64,000 nt of DNA from Escherichia phage IME11: the sequence record NC_019423.1; one strand, given 5' to 3'. The translations under genes and the position numbers were made by a program. This document shows, piece by piece, positions 3,569 to 63,037 of this stretch; position 1 is the stretch's first letter; every line of letters begins with the position of its first letter. The notes beneath the pieces were generated by a model that did not search any database, was not told the origin of the DNA, and saw only the letters and a program-made list of their open reading frames with translations.

Positions 3569-5839
3569 ATGGAACACCAAGACACTTTTAAGCCTTTGCC
3601 AGACCCGGCTCAATCAGAGAAGTTAACGGACTGGAAGAAGGAACCAAGTATCCAATTACTGAAGGGTGATTTGGAATCTGCTAAACCTGCTCACGATGCA
3701 ATCATGTCTCAGATTCGTGAGTGGAATGACTTAATGGAAGTCAAGGGTAAAGCTAAACCCCCAAAGATTAAGGGACGCTCACAAGTCCAGCCTAGACTGG
3801 TTCGCCGTCAGGCAGAGTGGCGTTATGCACCATTATCTGAACCATTCCTCTCATCCAGTAAACTCTTTAAGCTAACACCTGTTACTTTTGAAGATGAGTT
3901 AGCTGCACGTCAGAATGAGTTAGTTCTTAACTACCAATTCCGTACTCAGCTTAATAAAGTAAAACTGGTGGATGATTACGTGCACAGTATTGTAGATGAC
4001 GGTACTGGTATTGCTCGTATTGGCTGGGAACGTAAGACCGTTAAGATTAAAACAGAAACTCCTGTCTTCCAGCTTTATCCCATTGAGAACCAGGAACAGG
4101 CAGATGTTCTTCAGCAGGCTTTACAACTTCAGGCAGAGAATCCTCGTGAATATGACGAAACTATGCCTGAAGATATTAAGGAAGCTGTTAACTATTTTAA
4201 TGAAACTGGTGAAGCTACCTATGCAATCCAGACTGGAGTTACTGAGGTAGAGGTAGAGAAAGCACTGGTTAACAGACCTACCGTTGAAATGCTTAACCCT
4301 AATAACGTAGTTATTGACCCAAGCTGTAATGGTGATTTGGATAAGGCTCTTTATGCAGTTATCTCATTCGAGACATGCAAAGCAGACCTCATGAAGAACA
4401 AAGACCGTTATCACAACCTGGATAAGATTGATTGGGAAAGCTCCAGTCCTATTACTGACCCAGACCATGAAAGTAAAACTCCTAGTGACTTCCAGTTTAA
4501 GGATGCACTTCGTAAGAAAGTTGTTGCTTATGAGTACTGGGGATTCTACGACATTAATGATGATGGTTCCCTGGAACCAATTGTTGCTACCTGGATTGGT
4601 TCTACTCTTATTCGTATGGAGAATAACCCATTCCCTGATGGTAAGTTACCTCTGGTGGTCGTTCCATACATGCCTCGTAAACGAGAACTCTTTGGTGAAG
4701 CTGATGCTGAACTATTAGGGGATAACCAAGCAATTCTTGGTGCAACTATGCGTGGGATGATTGACCTGTTGGGTCGAAGTGCAAACGGGCAGCGAGGTTA
4801 TCCTAAGGGGATGCTGGATACTCTTAACCGTCGTCGATACGATGATGGACAAGACTATGAATATAACCCAATGCAGGGTAATCCTAGTCAGTCCATTATG
4901 GAACATAAGTTCCCTGAGTTACCCCAGTCGGCAATAGTAATGACCCAGATGCAAAACCAGGAAGCAGAATCATTAACAGGTGTTAAAGCATTCTCTGGTG
5001 GTGTAACTGGTTCAGCTTATGGAGATGTGGCTGCTGGTATTCGTGGTGCACTTGATGCAGCATCCAAACGTGAGATGGCAATCCTTCGTCGATTAGCTAA
5101 GGGTATGGCAGATATTGGTACTAAGATTTGTGCAATGAATGCCGTGTTCTTATCTGAGAAGGAAGTAGTACGTATTACCAATGAACAATATGTAGAGATT
5201 AAACGAGAAGACCTTAAAGGTAATTTCGATATTGAAGTTGATATTAATACTGCCGAGATTGATAACCAGAAATCCCAGGATTTGGGCTTCATGGTTCAAA
5301 CATTAGGTAACACAGTTGACCAGTCTATTACGTTATCTCTTGTAGCTAAGATTGCAGAACTTAAACGTATGCCAGACCTTGCACATGAGTTACGTACTTG
5401 GCAACCACAACCAGACCCAATGGAAGAACAGCTTAAGCAATTGGCAATTCAGAAAGCACAGCTTGAGAATGAAGAGTTACAAAGTAAGATTGCACTCAAT
5501 AATGCTAAAGCTAAAGAAGCTGCTTCTAGTGGTGACCTTAAAGACCTGGATTATCTGGAACAGGAATCTGGTACTAAACATGCTCGTGATATGGAAAAAC
5601 AAAAAGCACAATCCCAAGGAAACCAGAACCTTCAGATAACTAAGGCATTGACAACACCTACTAAAGAAGGTGAAACTACCCCCAACATATCTGCTGCTGT
5701 TGGATATAACACTTTGACTAACGGGAACTCTCCACAAGAACGTGACTTAGCTGCTCAACAAGACCCAGCTTATTCACTTGGTTCCCAATACTATGACCCT
5801 AGCCAAGACCCAGCATCGGCTCTTGGCATGAACCTGTAA
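3569..5839 (+). CDS. portal protein
   Basis: 756-aa ORF between lysis cassette and capsid genes; size and position match the portal gene of N4-like phages (about 760 aa); no motif confirmed by eye. Confidence 0.65.
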
Positions 5840-28450: not shown

Positions 28451-29460
28451 TTAATTGCCAGGGATTCCACCTGGCTCTATCTGTTTTTATAGTCACTCAG
28501 ATATCGTCTGGACTTGTTGTGGTGACCGGTACTGATCTCCGGCATAAGGCGCTTATTCGGCGGCGTCGAGCTTGCTTATTCGCTTGAGCCATCCTCGTGA
28601 GTCAGCCACGTCCCACTGCGCATCAGCCTGCACATTCACCACAACGGAAAGAGCACTGATGCGCTCACTTGGGACTCCTTAGCCATAACCCACGGGCTTC
28701 TGGTACACCAATGCTCTTACCTGTTGTGTGCCCATTATTAATCACACCGGGCCAGTGCGCCGAATTTGTTTACAAGGAATCGGAAGACCTTGCTGACTTA
28801 TAGGCTATTACGCCGCCATCAGAACAACATCATCGTTTGCATTTATGTTATTGGTTCGTTTCTAAAAAACCACATAATCGCTTACGAAAACTATCAAAGA
28901 GTACACTTACTCGACTGGTTAAACTACATCTGTCCAGCTCCGCAACAAATATACTCATTGATAGGATGTCATAATAGGGGAGGGAGGACGAATCCCTCTT
29001 TACCCTATGGTTTAGTTTACATGTAAGACCTAACATCTCTATGCTGGATGAATAGCGTAATGAACTATCCGACATCATTGGTTAATGTTGTGCTCAACAT
29101 GAGCGTTAGTTGATAAGGGATCTGAAGCCTTATCCTAAAGATACTAACCTTTGGGATATAGCCTAAGATTCAGAAATGGCCCCTATAGGGAGAGGCCATT
29201 GATTAACCCGAATGTTGCTTTACATTTTCTGTGATAACCCATTCTTAAAATAGTCTACCTGACGGATGGGAGTTAACCCTAGCGTCAGTGCCATACGGCA
29301 AAGATTAAGTTAAGAAAGGTTACGATAGGAGTTCCTATCTCAAAGGATTCTAACAGAACCCTTCACGATATTAACTATTCATTGTGAAATTCTTTGTTTC
29401 CTTCAGCAGGTTCTACACCCAAGAAAAAGCTAACTTTTCCACTTAGTTTAGATTGAACCA
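28451..29460 (-). ncRNA. candidate structured non-coding RNA region adjacent to the tRNA-like cluster (strand not established)
   Basis: About 1 kb with no credible ORF; 28500-28760 is locally GC-rich (about 52-62 percent versus about 38 percent at 29101-29160, hand counts) with a long inverted repeat GTCCCACTGCGCATCAG / CTGATGCGCTCACTTGGGAC; further hairpins at 29120-29350. Confidence 0.25.
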
Positions 29461-55215: not shown

Positions 55216-55398
55216 TTAGTTGATTACACAGTAGAGAGCAAAAGCCATCCATCCTGCCATTACAAAGCAGCCAAATGAATATGCCCCATAGTAGCAATAG
55301 GCAAACTTAGACTTGTGGGCACGAACTATCGTAGCCAGAACCAGTACAGATAAAACTATCAGTATTAGCTGAAAGATTACTTCAAAATTGATTAGCAT
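55216..55398 (-). CDS. small membrane protein
   Basis: ORF track 55216..55431; Met at 55398 preceded by GGAGGT avoids the terminator hairpin; hydrophobic helices. Confidence 0.45.
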   Translation of the reverse strand: MLINFEVIFQLILIVLSVLVLATIVRAHKSKFAYCYYGAYSFGCFVMAGWMAFALYCVIN

Positions 55399-55415
55399 AG
55401 TTGTTACCTCCAAGC

Positions 55416-55449
55416 AAAAAATAAGCCTCACTCCCGAAGGAATGAGGCT
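55416..55449 (-). terminator. rho-independent terminator with CUUCGG-type loop
   Basis: AGCCTCA...TCC-TTCG-GGA...TGAGGCT hairpin followed on the minus strand by TTTTTTGCTT. Confidence 0.5.
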
Positions 55450-55582: not shown

Positions 55583-56800
55583 TTAACTAAGGGCATAATC
55601 AGTCTCCAGAATGTCCTGCCAGAGGCTGTCATCCAGCTTACCAGCAGAGAACTCTTGCCCCAATACCTGAGACAGGATGAAGCCCAGCAGGTCACTCTTA
55701 GCGATGTCAGACAGAATCTGATTGTACTGACGACGCAGGTCATTACCGTAGTTAGGATGGCAACGGAAGCAGTCATGCACAGTCATTACAGGGAATGGTT
55801 TCTTAGGCAGAGTGTCAATCATATCTGCTACTACCTGACGGTCTACATAAGCAATAGTACATGGGTCAAGATAATCAATGATTGATAATGATAAGAAGCC
55901 AGATTTCTCATAGTGGCTCCATAGCTCTTGTACCTTCTCCAGATTACCTACAATCTCCCCATATTCTGATGGACCTTCATCACAGAGTTCTCTCACAGCT
56001 TCCACTAAGTCACGGTCGAAGTTACAACGACGCAGCATCTCACGTACCACCATCCCATCAATTGAGTGAGTGATGTTAGCAGAGAGCATACGAGTCTTCT
56101 CTTCAGTACCCTGAACCATACGAGTGATGTCGAATGGCTTACCTAAGAAGTTAACAGTCTGTACTTCAGGAACCATTACCTTAATGACAGCGTGGAAGTT
56201 GTCAGGCAGTACCCATATATAACGGTTGGCATCCGGGTTACCACATTGCAGTAAGAACTTGTTCAGTGCCCAAGGACCACTTGCAACAGTTTCCATTACA
56301 TTCTCAAAAGTCTTGAGACGAATACCTTCACCGAATACCTCTTTGGGCTTGGCTTCTGAGCCGTAGAATGCAGTCATAACTGCTTGCTTGGTGTCACTAC
56401 GTTTAATACGGGATGCTTCACCAAGGATGTCCAGCATCTTGTGATAGATGACTGTATAAGCATCACGACGTAATGGCTTACCATTCTCTCCCATGTAGTT
56501 AACTACGTTACACAGTTCAGCAGCAGAACGGTCACCAGTCAGGCAGGCCAGTAACTGCAAGCCTGATGATGTAGCATCCAGAGCTACGGCATAACCGATA
56601 GGCTTACCTGCTTTCATATCTTTCCATGCGTTTACACCAGCAAAGAACAGTGCAGATTCTTCAGCCTCATCTACCAGATTAAGCAGGTTAGTTTCGTTCT
56701 CATCGAACCAAGCAATACGCTCATCCCATGTCTTCTTATCTAAGCCATAGTTATTGGCGATATCTACTTTCAGGTATTCACGAGCGGTTAACAGTTGCAT
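55583..56800 (-). CDS. phage RNA polymerase II, catalytic subunit (T7-like single-subunit RNAP palm/fingers)
   Basis: 405 aa; motif A ALDATSSGLQ (compare T7 DGSCSGIQ), motif B RSDTKQAVMTAFYGS (compare T7 RSVTKRSVMTLAYGS), motif C VMTVHDCF (compare T7 HDSF); T7 sequences quoted from memory. Confidence 0.7.
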   Translation of the reverse strand: MQLLTAREYLKVDIANNYGLDKKTWDERIAWFDENETNLLNLVDEAEESALFFAGVNAWKDMKAGKPIGYAVALDATSSGLQLLACLTGDRSAAELCNVVNYMGENGKPLRRDAYTVIYHKMLDILGEASRIKRSDTKQAVMTAFYGSEAKPKEVFGEGIRLKTFENVMETVASGPWALNKFLLQCGNPDANRYIWVLPDNFHAVIKVMVPEVQTVNFLGKPFDITRMVQGTEEKTRMLSANITHSIDGMVVREMLRRCNFDRDLVEAVRELCDEGPSEYGEIVGNLEKVQELWSHYEKSGFLSLSIIDYLDPCTIAYVDRQVVADMIDTLPKKPFPVMTVHDCFRCHPNYGNDLRRQYNQILSDIAKSDLLGFILSQVLGQEFSAGKLDDSLWQDILETDYALS

Positions 56801-56857
56801 TTTATGTTCCTTTTGCTTCTTGGCTCCCCACTATGGAGAGCCTGCTTATTGGATGGA

Positions 56858-57097
56858 TTAGCCAGCATTAAATGATGCCAATACTATTCCTGGTTCCACA
56901 CCTTCGGTGGCAATGCCCAGATATTCAACGTTTACTTTGTCAGGGGAAGAGCACCAAGCGGAGTATAGTTTCCATTCCCCGTCTGGGTTAATAAGGCGAG
57001 CTTCCTCTTCAGTTTTAGCCGCTACTACAGCAGAATCGTATGAATCCCATCCCGTATTTTCTTCCTGGCTAATAAGCCATAGTTTTAATCTACTCAT
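56858..57097 (-). CDS. hypothetical protein (79 aa) between the two RNAP II subunit genes
   Basis: ORF with AAGGAG RBS 8 nt upstream of the ATG. Confidence 0.55.
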   Translation of the reverse strand: MSRLKLWLISQEENTGWDSYDSAVVAAKTEEEARLINPDGEWKLYSAWCSSPDKVNVEYLGIATEGVEPGIVLASFNAG

Positions 57098-57116
57098 CGT
57101 TTACTAGCTCCTTATC

Positions 57117-57278
57117 TTAGATGGTTACTACGTCTGCAGTTAGTTTGTAAATTATGGTTTTACTCTTAGGGTTCTGTAGCTTGTAAAGCTTCTCAAAGTA
57201 TAAGCACTTCACATATGTACCTGAGTAAATACACTCTTCATTAACCCATAGCTCATAGGAGCCAATGTTAGTCTTCAT
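57117..57278 (-). CDS. small ORF (53 aa) between the two RNAP II subunit genes
   Basis: Below the ORF-track cut-off; AAGGAG RBS 8 nt upstream of the ATG; start overlaps the upstream stop by 11 nt. Confidence 0.4.
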   Translation of the reverse strand: MKTNIGSYELWVNEECIYSGTYVKCLYFEKLYKLQNPKSKTIIYKLTADVVTI

Positions 57279-58086
57279 TTACTAACTCCTTATCAGCGAA
57301 CTCCAGCACAGCTTTGTTGTAACTGGTTCCCTGATAGTTGATGTGGTAGCCACAGGCATATGTACGCCCACGTTTGTCATATTTGTGAGCCAAGGAGAAG
57401 TTATTGCCTTCTTTGGTTACTAGCTCCATTACTTCCTTAGCTGTACGACTGTACTTCTCAAAGGCTTTAACACGTTTCTCATAGTCCTGACGGGTTTCAC
57501 CTTCTTTGGGTTTATCCATGTTAGGACGAGAGTCTTTTACGTAGTTAGCAACGTCCCAGTTAATGCAGAGACGTTGATTATTCATACGGTTGATGTGGTC
57601 AAGACAGACGTCCATCTCATGATGGTTCTTCTTGAGGATGATGCTTCCTTTGCTTTCGTAGTAACCGGTGTCACGGTTACTCATAACAGGCTTAGGAGCA
57701 CTTACGATAGGCAATGGGTACTGGAATGCTTCCAGTTCCATCTGTACATCTTCACCAATCTCATAAATAACACCGAACTTGTCGATGGTAGGGTCATAGT
57801 TGAAGCAGTCATTCTCTGCCATCTTATACAGACAGTCAGCGATGTACTGAGCATCATCTGAGTGACTCATGAGGGAGCCAATCATAGTTTGAATGTCAGC
57901 TCGTTTATGTAGGGCAATCTGCACCATTGCATCAATGAGCAGCTTATAATCAATTTCTAAATAGGCAGCGAATGCCTTAAAGTCAATTTCTTTGGAGTCC
58001 TCGAATTCCTTCCTCATGCGAGGCAGGAGCTGATTTTTATTGAATAGTACTTCGAGTTGCTTCTGATGTTCGATTGACGAGTACAT
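57268..58086 (-). CDS. phage RNA polymerase II, N-terminal-type subunit
   Basis: 272 aa; C-terminal YDKRGRTYACGYHINYQG resembles the T7 RNAP D-x-x-G-R region (DWRGRVYAVSMFNPQG, from memory). Confidence 0.55.
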   Translation of the reverse strand: MYSSIEHQKQLEVLFNKNQLLPRMRKEFEDSKEIDFKAFAAYLEIDYKLLIDAMVQIALHKRADIQTMIGSLMSHSDDAQYIADCLYKMAENDCFNYDPTIDKFGVIYEIGEDVQMELEAFQYPLPIVSAPKPVMSNRDTGYYESKGSIILKKNHHEMDVCLDHINRMNNQRLCINWDVANYVKDSRPNMDKPKEGETRQDYEKRVKAFEKYSRTAKEVMELVTKEGNNFSLAHKYDKRGRTYACGYHINYQGTSYNKAVLEFADKELVNED

Positions 58087-58139
58087 CGCTTATTCTCCTA
58101 AATGTGATTAATAACCAAAAGCTGCGGAGCAGCTATTAC

Positions 58140-61902: not shown

Positions 61903-61917
61903 AGACGCGGAGCGTCT
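61903..61917 (-). promoter_or_regulatory. candidate virion-RNAP (N4-type) early promoter hairpin
   Basis: Template (+) strand AGACGC-GGA-GCGTCT: 6-bp stem, 3-nt GGA loop, upstream of 61412..61795; one of three near-identical hairpins. Confidence 0.45.
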
Positions 61918-63022: not shown

Positions 63023-63037
63023 ACATGCGGAGCATGT
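63023..63037 (-). promoter_or_regulatory. candidate virion-RNAP (N4-type) early promoter hairpin
   Basis: Template (+) strand ACATGC-GGA-GCATGT: 6-bp stem, GGA loop; about 50 nt upstream of the ATG of 62657..62980. Confidence 0.45.

Follow-up and report, generated by a model that had tools for sequence, protein, structure and literature searches.

Split N4-type RNA polymerase II genes of Escherichia phage IME11 flank a gap with two probable slots for exchangeable small genes

The window analysed here, a 64,000-nucleotide stretch of Escherichia phage IME11 (NC_019423.1), contains two genes predicted to encode the two subunits of a heterodimeric, T7-family RNA polymerase II (RNAPII) of the N4 type. 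The subunit genes are separated by a 467-bp gap with a 53-aa and a 79-aa ORF inside it, and all four ORFs are on the - strand (Table 1). The gap is very probably a two-slot site for variable cargo, with the 53-aa and 79-aa genes being real, accessory, and exchangeable. The layout itself is already known: for N4, a split polymerase is standard knowledge, and spacer genes between the subunit genes were described in 2017 (Amgarten et al., BMC Genomics 18:346, PMC5418858). The finding is ordinary and its significance beyond correct annotation is small; what is gained is a finer picture of the site, with its two slots and an RBS-ATG junction that is re-used, with footprints in duplicate and tracts resembling co-conversion, and with no fewer than four families of endonuclease.

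Table 1. Features of the RNAPII block and its gap (positions refer to the window)
Feature	Position	Strand	Remarks
Early promoter hairpin, vRNAP type (putative)	58120..58134	-	found by scan; coding strand AGCTGC-TCC-GCAGCT
RNAPII small-subunit gene (272 aa)	57268..58086	-	N4 gp15 orthologue ("RNAP1"): N-terminal domain, thumb, DxxGR
Junction motif, copy 1, GATAAGGAGTTAGTAAATGA	57275..57294	-	in the small-subunit gene's last codons
Cargo slot 1, 53-aa ORF	57117..57278	-	genus-restricted orphan
Junction motif, copy 2, GATAAGGAGCTAGTAAACGATG	57095..57116	-	gives the 79-aa ORF its RBS and ATG
Cargo slot 2, 79-aa ORF	56858..57097	-	widespread, well-conserved small phage protein family
Hairpin GGCTCTCCA-TAG-TGGGGAGCC	56822..56842	-	conserved, just 5' of the large-subunit RBS
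RNAPII large-subunit gene (405 aa)	55583..56800	-	N4 gp16 orthologue ("RNAP2"): palm and fingers, motifs A, B, C
Intrinsic-terminator-like hairpin, 11-bp stem, then TATTTTTT	55424..55449	-	consensus match

The 272-aa protein aligns end to end with N4 gp15 (PDB 6DT7 chain A; residues 3-269 against 2-268, E 1.3e-117) and matches phrog_2166, "N4-like RNA polymerase" (E 1.4e-116); its DxxGR motif, DKRGR, pairs with the DKRGR of gp15. The 405-aa protein aligns over its whole length (residues 1-405) with N4 gp16 (6DT7 chain B, E 1.2e-188), matches phrog_2051 (E 4.2e-176) and Pfam PF00940 (E 7.6e-14), and carries motifs A (LDATSSGLQ), B (RSDTKQAVMTAFYGS), and C (VHDCF). Residues D75, K138, Y146, G147, H342, and D343 are invariant in the large-subunit alignment, and the two catalytic aspartates correspond to D537 and D812 of T7. 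Identity to N4 RNAPII is ~65% and 68% for the two subunits (tblastn), with lengths within 1-3 residues; the distribution of motifs, the gene order, and the presence of a vRNAP-type hairpin 5' of the small-subunit gene are all the same, and both subunit genes lie on one strand. These results bear out the original prediction of an N4 RNAPII-type polymerase split over two genes, with DxxGR in the 272-aa and motifs A, B, and C in the 405-aa protein; both proteins match their N4 counterparts at full length, so the 272-aa protein does resemble an RNAP small subunit. The separation of about 470 bp, the two small ORFs of 79 aa and 53 aa within it, and the AAGGAG RBS claimed for each were likewise found, AAGGAG preceding the ATG by 7 nt in one case and by 10 nt in the other. 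N4 RNAPII, purified as a gp15-gp16 heterodimer, transcribes middle genes with the cofactors gp1 and gp2, the biochemistry being from N4 only (PMC4496689). Matches to the region at the DNA level came from 60 phage records, and the ones with a taxonomy line are Gamaleyavirus; the window is from a Gamaleyavirus, i.e. a G7C-like, N4-like E. coli phage. Given this identity of the closest records, a gene for the virion RNAP (vRNAP) is to be expected in the phage.

The window has exactly three vRNAP-type hairpins, each of them on the template strand. N4 vRNAP promoters have a GC-rich heptamer on the template strand, centred at -11 and flanked by inverted repeats, with -8G, -9C, -10G, -11G, and -12A as determinants and a loop of 3 nt (PMC4496689). 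The hairpin 5' of the small-subunit gene reads AGCTGC-GGA-GCAGCT on the template strand (heptamer GCGGAGC between inverted repeats, 3-nt loop), has all five published determinants, and recurs 5' of N4 gp15. It has the makings of a vRNAP early promoter, with a predicted start at G 58116, 30 nt 5' of the small-subunit ATG. A sigma-70 promoter scan returned fewer hits than shuffled sequence, giving no hint of host-type promoters inside the block that would serve the small ORFs. At the other end, the terminator-like hairpin lies 134 nt 3' of the large-subunit stop and is the probable 3' end of the operon. The block would thus be read by the injected virion RNAP as a single early transcript, from the promoter hairpin to the terminator-like hairpin.

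Copy 1 of the junction motif, which overlaps the small-subunit stop (57270-57268), gives the 53-aa ORF its AAGGAG and ATG (57278-57276), and the 53-aa ORF overlaps the small-subunit gene by 11 nt. Because its ATG sits within the last codons of the small-subunit gene, translation of the 53-aa ORF in slot 1 is probably coupled to that of the small subunit. Every relative examined has the junction motif ahead of whichever cargo ORF comes first. Copy 2 repeats the small-subunit 3' end in the form found in phages with the 79-aa ORF only (e.g. PBM-3) and is, to judge by its sequence, an insertion footprint; the 79-aa ORF in slot 2 would thereby use a duplicated RBS-ATG junction. The duplication amounts to 20 nt in the window and to ~55 nt in survey locus L006, where it lies 3' of an HNH gene. 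The 3' boundary of the cargo site is the hairpin preceding the large-subunit gene. Its stems vary by lineage with pairing kept (GAGCC/GGCTC, GTTCC/GGAAC, GGTT/AACC, and GGGC/GCCC), the PBM-3 version having a compensatory C>T with G>A, and it has neither the loop of a vRNAP promoter nor a T run.

Both small ORFs appear from their substitution patterns to be genuine genes under purifying selection rather than chance frames. Their dN/dS values are 0.06-0.18 (0.08-0.10 for the 79-aa ORF), like those of the flanking polymerase genes, with many synonymous changes. The 53-aa protein corresponds to phrog_15352 (E 1.5e-40), and of the 22 phage records in which tblastn located it, 20 are Escherichia, another is a named Gamaleyavirus, and the last was deposited under Klebsiella phage; only two real relatives occur among 1.84 billion representative proteins. 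Its AF2 model is poor (pLDDT 71, pTM 0.38) and unfit for a fold search. A relationship to the 55-aa "KYELW" ORF, the slot 2 occupant in Jgk1 and Klebsiella phage phi1_146050, was considered and rejected, the BLASTP match covering five residues and not being significant. The 79-aa protein corresponds to phrog_5444 (E 1.9e-25) and has homologues in 78 protein clusters, with the family consensus MKLWLISQ..N.GYDTYDSAVVAA.TEEEAR...SPDKV...ILASFNAG. Five columns of the family alignment are invariant and 19 near-invariant; the family is compact, its N-terminal region and C-terminus are fixed, and the protein in the window is full-length. Among the 55 phage records found by tblastn, 43 are below 60% identity and belong to other phage groups; Vibrio, Rhizobium, and Acinetobacter phages and metagenomic contigs have homologues, and none of the five contexts examined includes a nearby RNAP gene. 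A good AF2 model (pLDDT 89.9) gave no informative match in fold searches of PDB and BFVD. This large, conserved, and wholly uncharacterised phage family would be a sensible choice for functional screens.

Comparison with relatives implies that the cargo is changeable. In N4 a mere 47 bp without an ORF separate the subunit genes, and the gap is also empty (58-59 bp) in EC1-UPM and phi G17; because the N4 genes are adjacent, as the original prediction had proposed to check in relatives, the small ORFs represent extra material at this site. The polymerase exists in N4 and close relatives without them, and for this reason we regard them as accessory. Phage records encoding these subunits number 466-488. 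In 14 of the 41 tabulated records the 53-aa ORF stands alone in the gap, and 12 Gamaleyavirus records have an ORF of the 79-aa family, either by itself or preceded by a 38-aa ORF; the 53-aa and 79-aa ORFs occur together only in phage 24-32N and in the window. Other contents are a 36-38-aa ORF, a 95-98-aa ORF with a 55-aa ORF, HNH_3+AP2 genes, and a phrog_1035/NUMOD1 endonuclease gene. Relatives whose large subunits are 98-99% identical to that of the window show three cargo states (the 36-aa ORF, the 53-aa ORF, or an HNH_3+AP2 gene), and EC1-UPM has an empty gap with a large subunit that is 96% identical.

The wider survey points the same way. Among IMG/VR split loci, 41 of 46 have at least one ORF in the gap, which reaches 3.5 kb, and at least 10 of the 46 have an HNH-family endonuclease gene there; at least four endonuclease families use the gap, and in Moonfish the large-subunit gene itself is interrupted by an HNH gene. 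Subunits were assigned in this survey by ORF size and position, because the iterative small- and large-subunit HMMs merged, bridged by unsplit single-chain RNAPs, which makes E-values from the merged model unreliable. Divergence is raised over the final ~150 nt of the small-subunit gene; in G7C the opening ~60 nt of the large-subunit gene show this as well. The rows for L010 and pSb-1, which are out of register from 3-nt indels, were left out of the comparison. Together, the duplicated junctions and locally diverged flanks appear to mark the gap as a hot spot of recombination and homing.

These data bear on several other accounts of the small ORFs. It is extremely improbable that they are untranslated, with the interval acting as spacer or regulatory RNA and the reading frames there by chance: short as the ORFs are, and with a conserved hairpin in the same interval, the low dN/dS with its many synonymous changes argues for translation, as do the canonical AAGGAG on both and the conservation of the 79-aa family as protein down to ~30% identity across unrelated phages, and an Rfam search of the region including the boundary hairpin gave no match. 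The PHROG matches and dN/dS values likewise speak against the small ORFs being unconserved, an outcome that would have told against the original prediction. Decay of homing endonuclease genes at the end of a homing cycle is also very improbable as their origin. Intact HNH-family endonuclease genes in the same gap of many relatives, and insertion footprints on the flanks of the 53-aa ORF, are consistent with such decay; however, neither ORF is similar in sequence to any nuclease family or has a recognisable HNH, GIY-YIG, LAGLIDADG, His-Cys box, PD-(D/E)xK, or EDxHD nuclease domain, structural resemblances fall under significance, both ORFs are under purifying selection, and the 79-aa protein is a complete family member, not a fragment. 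The suggestion that the ORFs are remnants of an insertion is right as to arrival, for which the 20-nt junction duplication implies insertion or exchange, but not as to decay, since both are intact and under selection.

More directly connected with the polymerase is the proposal that one or both small proteins are lineage-specific RNAPII accessory factors or regulators, acting in the early-to-middle switch, promoter choice, or subunit assembly; their place between the subunit genes would let them be made in step with the subunits. Predicted co-transcription and apparent translational coupling with the subunit genes fit this proposal, as do purifying selection on both ORFs and the position of the 79-aa family directly 5' of the large-subunit gene in both Gamaleyavirus and Klebsiella phage JZBo1. 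Nevertheless, we consider it quite unlikely: N4, EC1-UPM, and phi G17 have the same enzyme without either ORF, phages with 98-99% identical polymerase genes have unrelated ORFs or endonuclease genes instead, the 79-aa family is widespread in other phage groups, the five contexts examined having no RNAP gene nearby, and N4 RNAPII was purified as a heterodimer with gp1 and gp2 as its known cofactors (PMC4496689). The same absences, together with the many phages that have near-identical polymerase genes and only one small ORF, tell against the earlier suggestion of additional polymerase subunits: an obligatory subunit should be present wherever the enzyme is, and in most relatives the small ORFs are missing, single, or replaced. 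Pfam and PHROG searches found no RNAP resemblance in either, and annotating the two proteins as polymerase subunits would be wrong.

A bolder combination, that the 79-aa protein modulates phage single-subunit-type transcription or the early-to-middle switch and that the gap is a homing-endonuclease-driven shuttle whose co-conversion spreads small beneficial genes among co-infecting N4-like phages, is unlikely in our estimation; two Enquatrovirinae lineages do have the 79-aa family in the slot directly 5' of the large-subunit gene. Our best guess for the small proteins is not a place in the polymerase but a strain-specific early accessory role, in host takeover or anti-defence. Scans of both with Pfam, NCBIfam, and PADLOC returned nothing meaningful, and neither matched a curated anti-phage defence or anti-defence family or a solved anti-defence structure. 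The host-takeover or anti-defence guess is a prior drawn from small variable early phage genes, with Pfam, NCBIfam, PADLOC, PDB, and BFVD giving no hits.

For the preferred reading, a split RNAPII with a two-slot gap for variable cargo, we propose that co-infecting phages swap cargo through recombination within the conserved flanking sequence. This exchange is probably promoted by the homing endonucleases in the gaps of other strains, which would cut empty or foreign alleles and, in such putative homing, co-convert ~150 nt of flank.

In the "G7C-type" organisation of Amgarten et al. (2017), N4-like split RNAP subunit genes are spaced by at least one unrelated gene; the authors report zero to eight spacer genes for N4-like phages, with a putative HNH endonuclease in the G7C gap, and already propose that the RNAP was split by a homing endonuclease. 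The window, with two non-RNAP ORFs between the subunit genes, is of this type; our survey agrees with their account, and by both the G7C-type layout is the commonest in the phage family. Their account of this organisation makes no mention of the two-slot layout, the common start junction, or the duplicated footprints. The window differs from N4 in its 467-bp gap with two ORFs, and from G7C in having 53-aa and 79-aa ORFs where the latter (L008/L023) has a 193-aa endonuclease-like gene.

Free-standing homing endonucleases lie between or within phage genes in "genes in pieces", such as T4 gene 39/60 with mobA. The Aeh1 (nrdA/mobE) and Twort cases are cited in the 2017 study (PMC5418858). The RNAPII locus is similar in that some N4-like relatives have an endonuclease gene between the halves of a gene that is single in other relatives, and in having flanks with a local rise in divergence and with duplicated target-proximal sequence. 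In contrast, the gap in the window has no endonuclease and only small non-nuclease ORFs, and homing at this site in N4-like phages is putative. The small ORFs also resemble morons and variable early genes: small and strain-variable, they are inserted among conserved genes, have translation signals of their own, and are exchanged horizontally; classical morons, however, bring a promoter and a terminator, whereas the ORFs of the window appear to use the operon promoter and a re-used RBS-ATG junction. In Klebsiella phage JZBo1 a 79-aa family member (39% identity) occupies the same slot, directly 5' of the large-subunit gene, which could hint at a site-linked function of the family.

The 272-aa and 405-aa proteins align end to end with the small and large subunits of N4 RNAPII, gp15 (PDB 6DT7 chain A; E 1.3e-117, DKRGR (DxxGR) motif covered) and gp16 (chain B; E 1.2e-188), respectively. 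The large subunit matches Pfam PF00940 and contains LDATSSGLQ, RSDTKQAVMTAFYGS, and VHDCF, which are invariant across the alignment with N4, Moo19, and JZBo1. Together, these full-length alignments, motifs, and Pfam match therefore bear out the original prediction that the two large ORFs are halves of one split polymerase. The two small ORFs it placed in a ~470-bp gap, each with an AAGGAG RBS (7 or 10 nt from the ATG), are likewise confirmed in their coordinates, with 467 bp between the polymerase genes. At the DNA level, the region is 90–97% identical to many Gamaleyavirus (G7C-like, N4-like) E. coli phages, 24-32N being nearest (96.6%).

Features of the RNAPII locus and vRNAP-type hairpins in the window (for vRNAP-type hairpins, the strand is that of the template)
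Feature	Position	Strand	Remarks
Small-subunit ORF, 272 aa	57268–58086	-	ORF listing
Small ORF, 53 aa	57117–57278	-	ORF listing
Small ORF, 79 aa	56858–57097	-	ORF listing
Small conserved hairpin	56822–56842	-	About 20–40 nt upstream of large-subunit ATG
Large-subunit ORF, 405 aa	55583–56800	-	ORF listing
Terminator-like hairpin	55424–55449	-	Strong, 11-bp stem, then TATTTTTT (T run), 3′ of large-subunit gene
vRNAP-type promoter hairpin	58120–58134	+	Template strand reads AGCTGC-GGA-GCAGCT; probable P3 equivalent
vRNAP-type hairpin	61903–61917	+	Probable P2 equivalent
vRNAP-type hairpin	63023–63037	+	Probable P1 equivalent

The hairpin upstream of the small-subunit gene, also present upstream of N4 gp15, has the published determinants of promoters for the virion RNA polymerase (vRNAP) (PMC4496689). 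The window has exactly three such hairpins, each of them on the template strand; they share the heptamer GCGGAGC, 6-bp stems, and CCAxAA 5′ of the stem, and differ in stem sequence (AGCTGC, AGACGC, ACATGC). A fourth GCGGAGC in the window (28937–28943) has no stem. The same number of early promoters lies in the leftmost 10% of the N4 genome (PMC4496689), and the three hairpins are probably their equivalents. With the large-subunit gene on one side and a small predicted membrane-protein ORF (55216–55431) on the other, the terminator-like hairpin may be where the early transcription unit ends. No sigma-70-like promoter stands out internally in a scan of the locus, and no Rfam family matches the region. 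From the promoter and terminator-like hairpins and these two negative results, we infer that a single early transcript would span the locus from the small subunit through both small ORFs to the large subunit.

The conserved hairpin that precedes the large-subunit gene has AAGA(N)GC and then the RBS on its 3′ side. Its position is kept across Enquatrovirinae (compared loci L005 (N4), L014, L017–L019, L024, L025, L027, L038, and L103) and its stem covaries (GGCTCTCCA/TGGGGAGCC, GAGCC/GGCTC, AGCC/GGCT, GTTCC/GGAAC, GGTT/AACC, GGGC/GCCC); it is missing where an endonuclease gene reaches the large-subunit ATG (G7C, Moonfish, L029). Its loop is wrong for a vRNAP promoter, and it has no T run as in an intrinsic terminator. 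The hairpin may act in RNA processing, in RNA stability, or in the control of translation. In E20 (locus L015, 1520–1560), a truncated GAGCC-type hairpin after the 38-aa ORF and an intact GGCTCTCCA-type hairpin flank the 80-aa ORF, which suggests that a 79-aa family cassette, carrying its own downstream hairpin, inserted into an older hairpin.

Gap contents, tabulated for 41 records from Gamaleyavirus and near relatives, fall into discrete states. Phages with large subunits 98–99% identical to that of the window have three different cargo states, and EC1-UPM, with a 96% identical large subunit, has an empty gap; 24-32N carries the same cargo as the window, yet its large subunit is only 90% identical. 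A third recurrent cargo, a probably helical, basic 35–38-aa ORF (MINxRAVEDFYAHRELVLKRINEA...KRK) without a PHROG or Pfam match, lies in slot 1 (the 53-aa ORF position in the window) or behind an endonuclease gene in the gaps of L012, E20, CU10EC (L016), and L006.

States of the gap between the subunit genes among the 41 records
Gap (bp)	Content	Records
58–59	Empty	EC1-UPM, phi G17
About 160	36-aa ORF	CU10EC
About 210	53-aa ORF only	14 records
About 292	79-aa ORF only	6 records
332	95-aa ORF	Moo19
441	38-aa + 80-aa ORFs	E20, F22
470	53-aa + 79-aa ORFs	24-32N and window only
515–519	95/98-aa + 55-aa ORFs	Jgk1, phi1_146050
About 555	HNH_3+AP2 endonuclease gene	5 records, e.g. Mimir124
587 and 680	phrog_1035/NUMOD1 endonuclease-like gene	G7C, Moonfish, pSb-1

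Nearly every first cargo ORF starts, to within a few bases, at one shared ATG overlapping the last small-subunit codons (…GATAAGGAGTTAGTAAATGAAGACTAA), with its RBS inside the codons for DKEL of the small-subunit gene. The junction occurs again in the window, as GATAAGGAGCTAGTAAACGATG, 3′ of the 53-aa ORF stop. Because this copy is identical in reading to the small-subunit 3′ end of phages with the 79-aa ORF only (e.g. PBM-3), the 53-aa cassette looks to have inserted into a 79-only ancestor, duplicating about 20 nt. L006 (IMG/VR UViG_3300006879_000003, 5350–5400) bears a longer footprint of this type: directly after the HNH_3+AP2 gene comes a non-coding duplicate of about 55 nt from the small-subunit 3′ end. 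Several synonymous sites distinguish this duplicate from the functional copy upstream of the endonuclease gene; the arrangement looks like a target-site footprint with immunising recoding. In ECBP1, a deletion is suggested by a 53-aa ORF that terminates inside the 3′-terminal codons of the 79-aa ORF. Toward its 3′ end (last ~150 nt), the small-subunit gene shows 7–13 mismatches per 30 nt versus 0–3 further upstream, and divergence is likewise raised in the first ~60 nt of the G7C large-subunit gene, as co-conversion tracts travelling with cargo would look.

Inspected GenBank records label the small ORFs as hypothetical proteins or leave them without annotation, and each matches an uncharacterised PHROG family. 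Judged by their sequences, both are real genes: pairwise dN/dS against relatives is 0.06–0.18 (53-aa ORF) and 0.08–0.10 (79-aa ORF), with 0.04–0.20 for the polymerase genes. Of the earlier suggestion that they are remnants of an insertion, origin by insertion stands and remnant status does not, since such values are those of live genes. The tblastn matches to the 53-aa ORF come from 22 phage records, of which 20 are from Escherichia phages, one is named Gamaleyavirus, and one was deposited as a Klebsiella phage; its structure model is poor, and with only two real relatives among the 1.84 billion representative proteins searched by profile, it is an orphan by this measure. A large protein collection contains 78 clusters homologous to the 79-aa protein, which shows striking conservation (N-terminal MKLWLISQ, YDSAVVAA, and an exact C-terminal SFNAG) and has a confident predicted model (pLDDT 89.9, pTM 0.80). 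BFVD fold matches of this model include several different uncharacterised proteins per jumbo phage (201phi2-1, Noxifer, Phabio, Aeromonas D3) and giant-virus proteins (Marseillevirus, Pithovirus), which suggests that it is part of a large, diversified, unstudied small-protein superfamily.

The alternative that the small ORFs encode additional polymerase subunits fares poorly: the N4 genes are 47 bp apart with no ORF between them, the gap is empty in EC1-UPM and phi G17, the cargo varies, and purification of the N4 enzyme gave a gp15-gp16 heterodimer, with gp1 and gp2 as cofactors (PMC4496689). The widespread 79-aa family is also present in other phage groups (28–54% identity; Vibrio, Rhizobium, Acinetobacter, Pectobacterium, Proteus, and jumbo Erwinia phages), and in the inspected contexts these homologues have small hypothetical genes as neighbours and no RNAP gene close by. 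On this evidence, the small ORFs are not obligatory subunits. A site-linked role for the 79-aa family is still conceivable, because a 39%-identical member occupies this slot, immediately 5′ of the large-subunit gene, in Klebsiella phage JZBo1.

As to whether related phages have the two genes adjacent, this holds for N4, EC1-UPM, and phi G17, and ORFs are interposed in most relatives. We fetched 80 IMG/VR loci with a large-subunit alignment and located the small-subunit gene upstream, giving 46 split loci. At least one ORF lies in the gap in 41 of the 46 and the genes are effectively adjacent in five; most split loci therefore have genes interposed, and the adjacent arrangement of N4 is the minority. 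The largest gaps reach 3.5 kb, and at least 10 hold an HNH-family endonuclease gene, the gap endonucleases comprising four families (HNH_3+AP2, HNH_3 alone, phrog_1035, and phrog_374). More distant relatives have an unsplit polymerase (629–790 aa). In L073 (3095–5029) and L074 (3155–5044), one ORF (644 and 629 aa, respectively) spans both subunits; these compact unsplit relatives, far shorter than the ~780-aa T7-like enzymes of L076–L099, could be informative on where and how the split arose.

Amgarten et al., 2017 (PMC5418858) distinguish T7-type (single gene), N4-type (two adjacent genes), and "G7C-type" (two genes with unrelated genes between them) organisations, the last with the layout of the window. 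They give zero to eight spacer genes in N4-like phages, note a putative HNH endonuclease in the G7C gap, propose that a homing endonuclease split an ancestral single-chain enzyme, and describe a gene 16 insertion in ZC08; gene 16 insertions are also published for N4G2 and Sz33 (bioRxiv 10.1101/542787). The polymerase-gene organisation of the window is thus already known. The large-subunit gene of pSb-1 (L032) is split into overlapping ORFs, possibly by a frameshift or sequencing error, and IMG/VR locus L064 has a ~870-bp interruption. In Shigella phage Moonfish (L013, 996–3181), the gene is broken up, with an annotated HNH endonuclease gene separating a 343-aa N-terminal part from an 81-aa C-terminal part.
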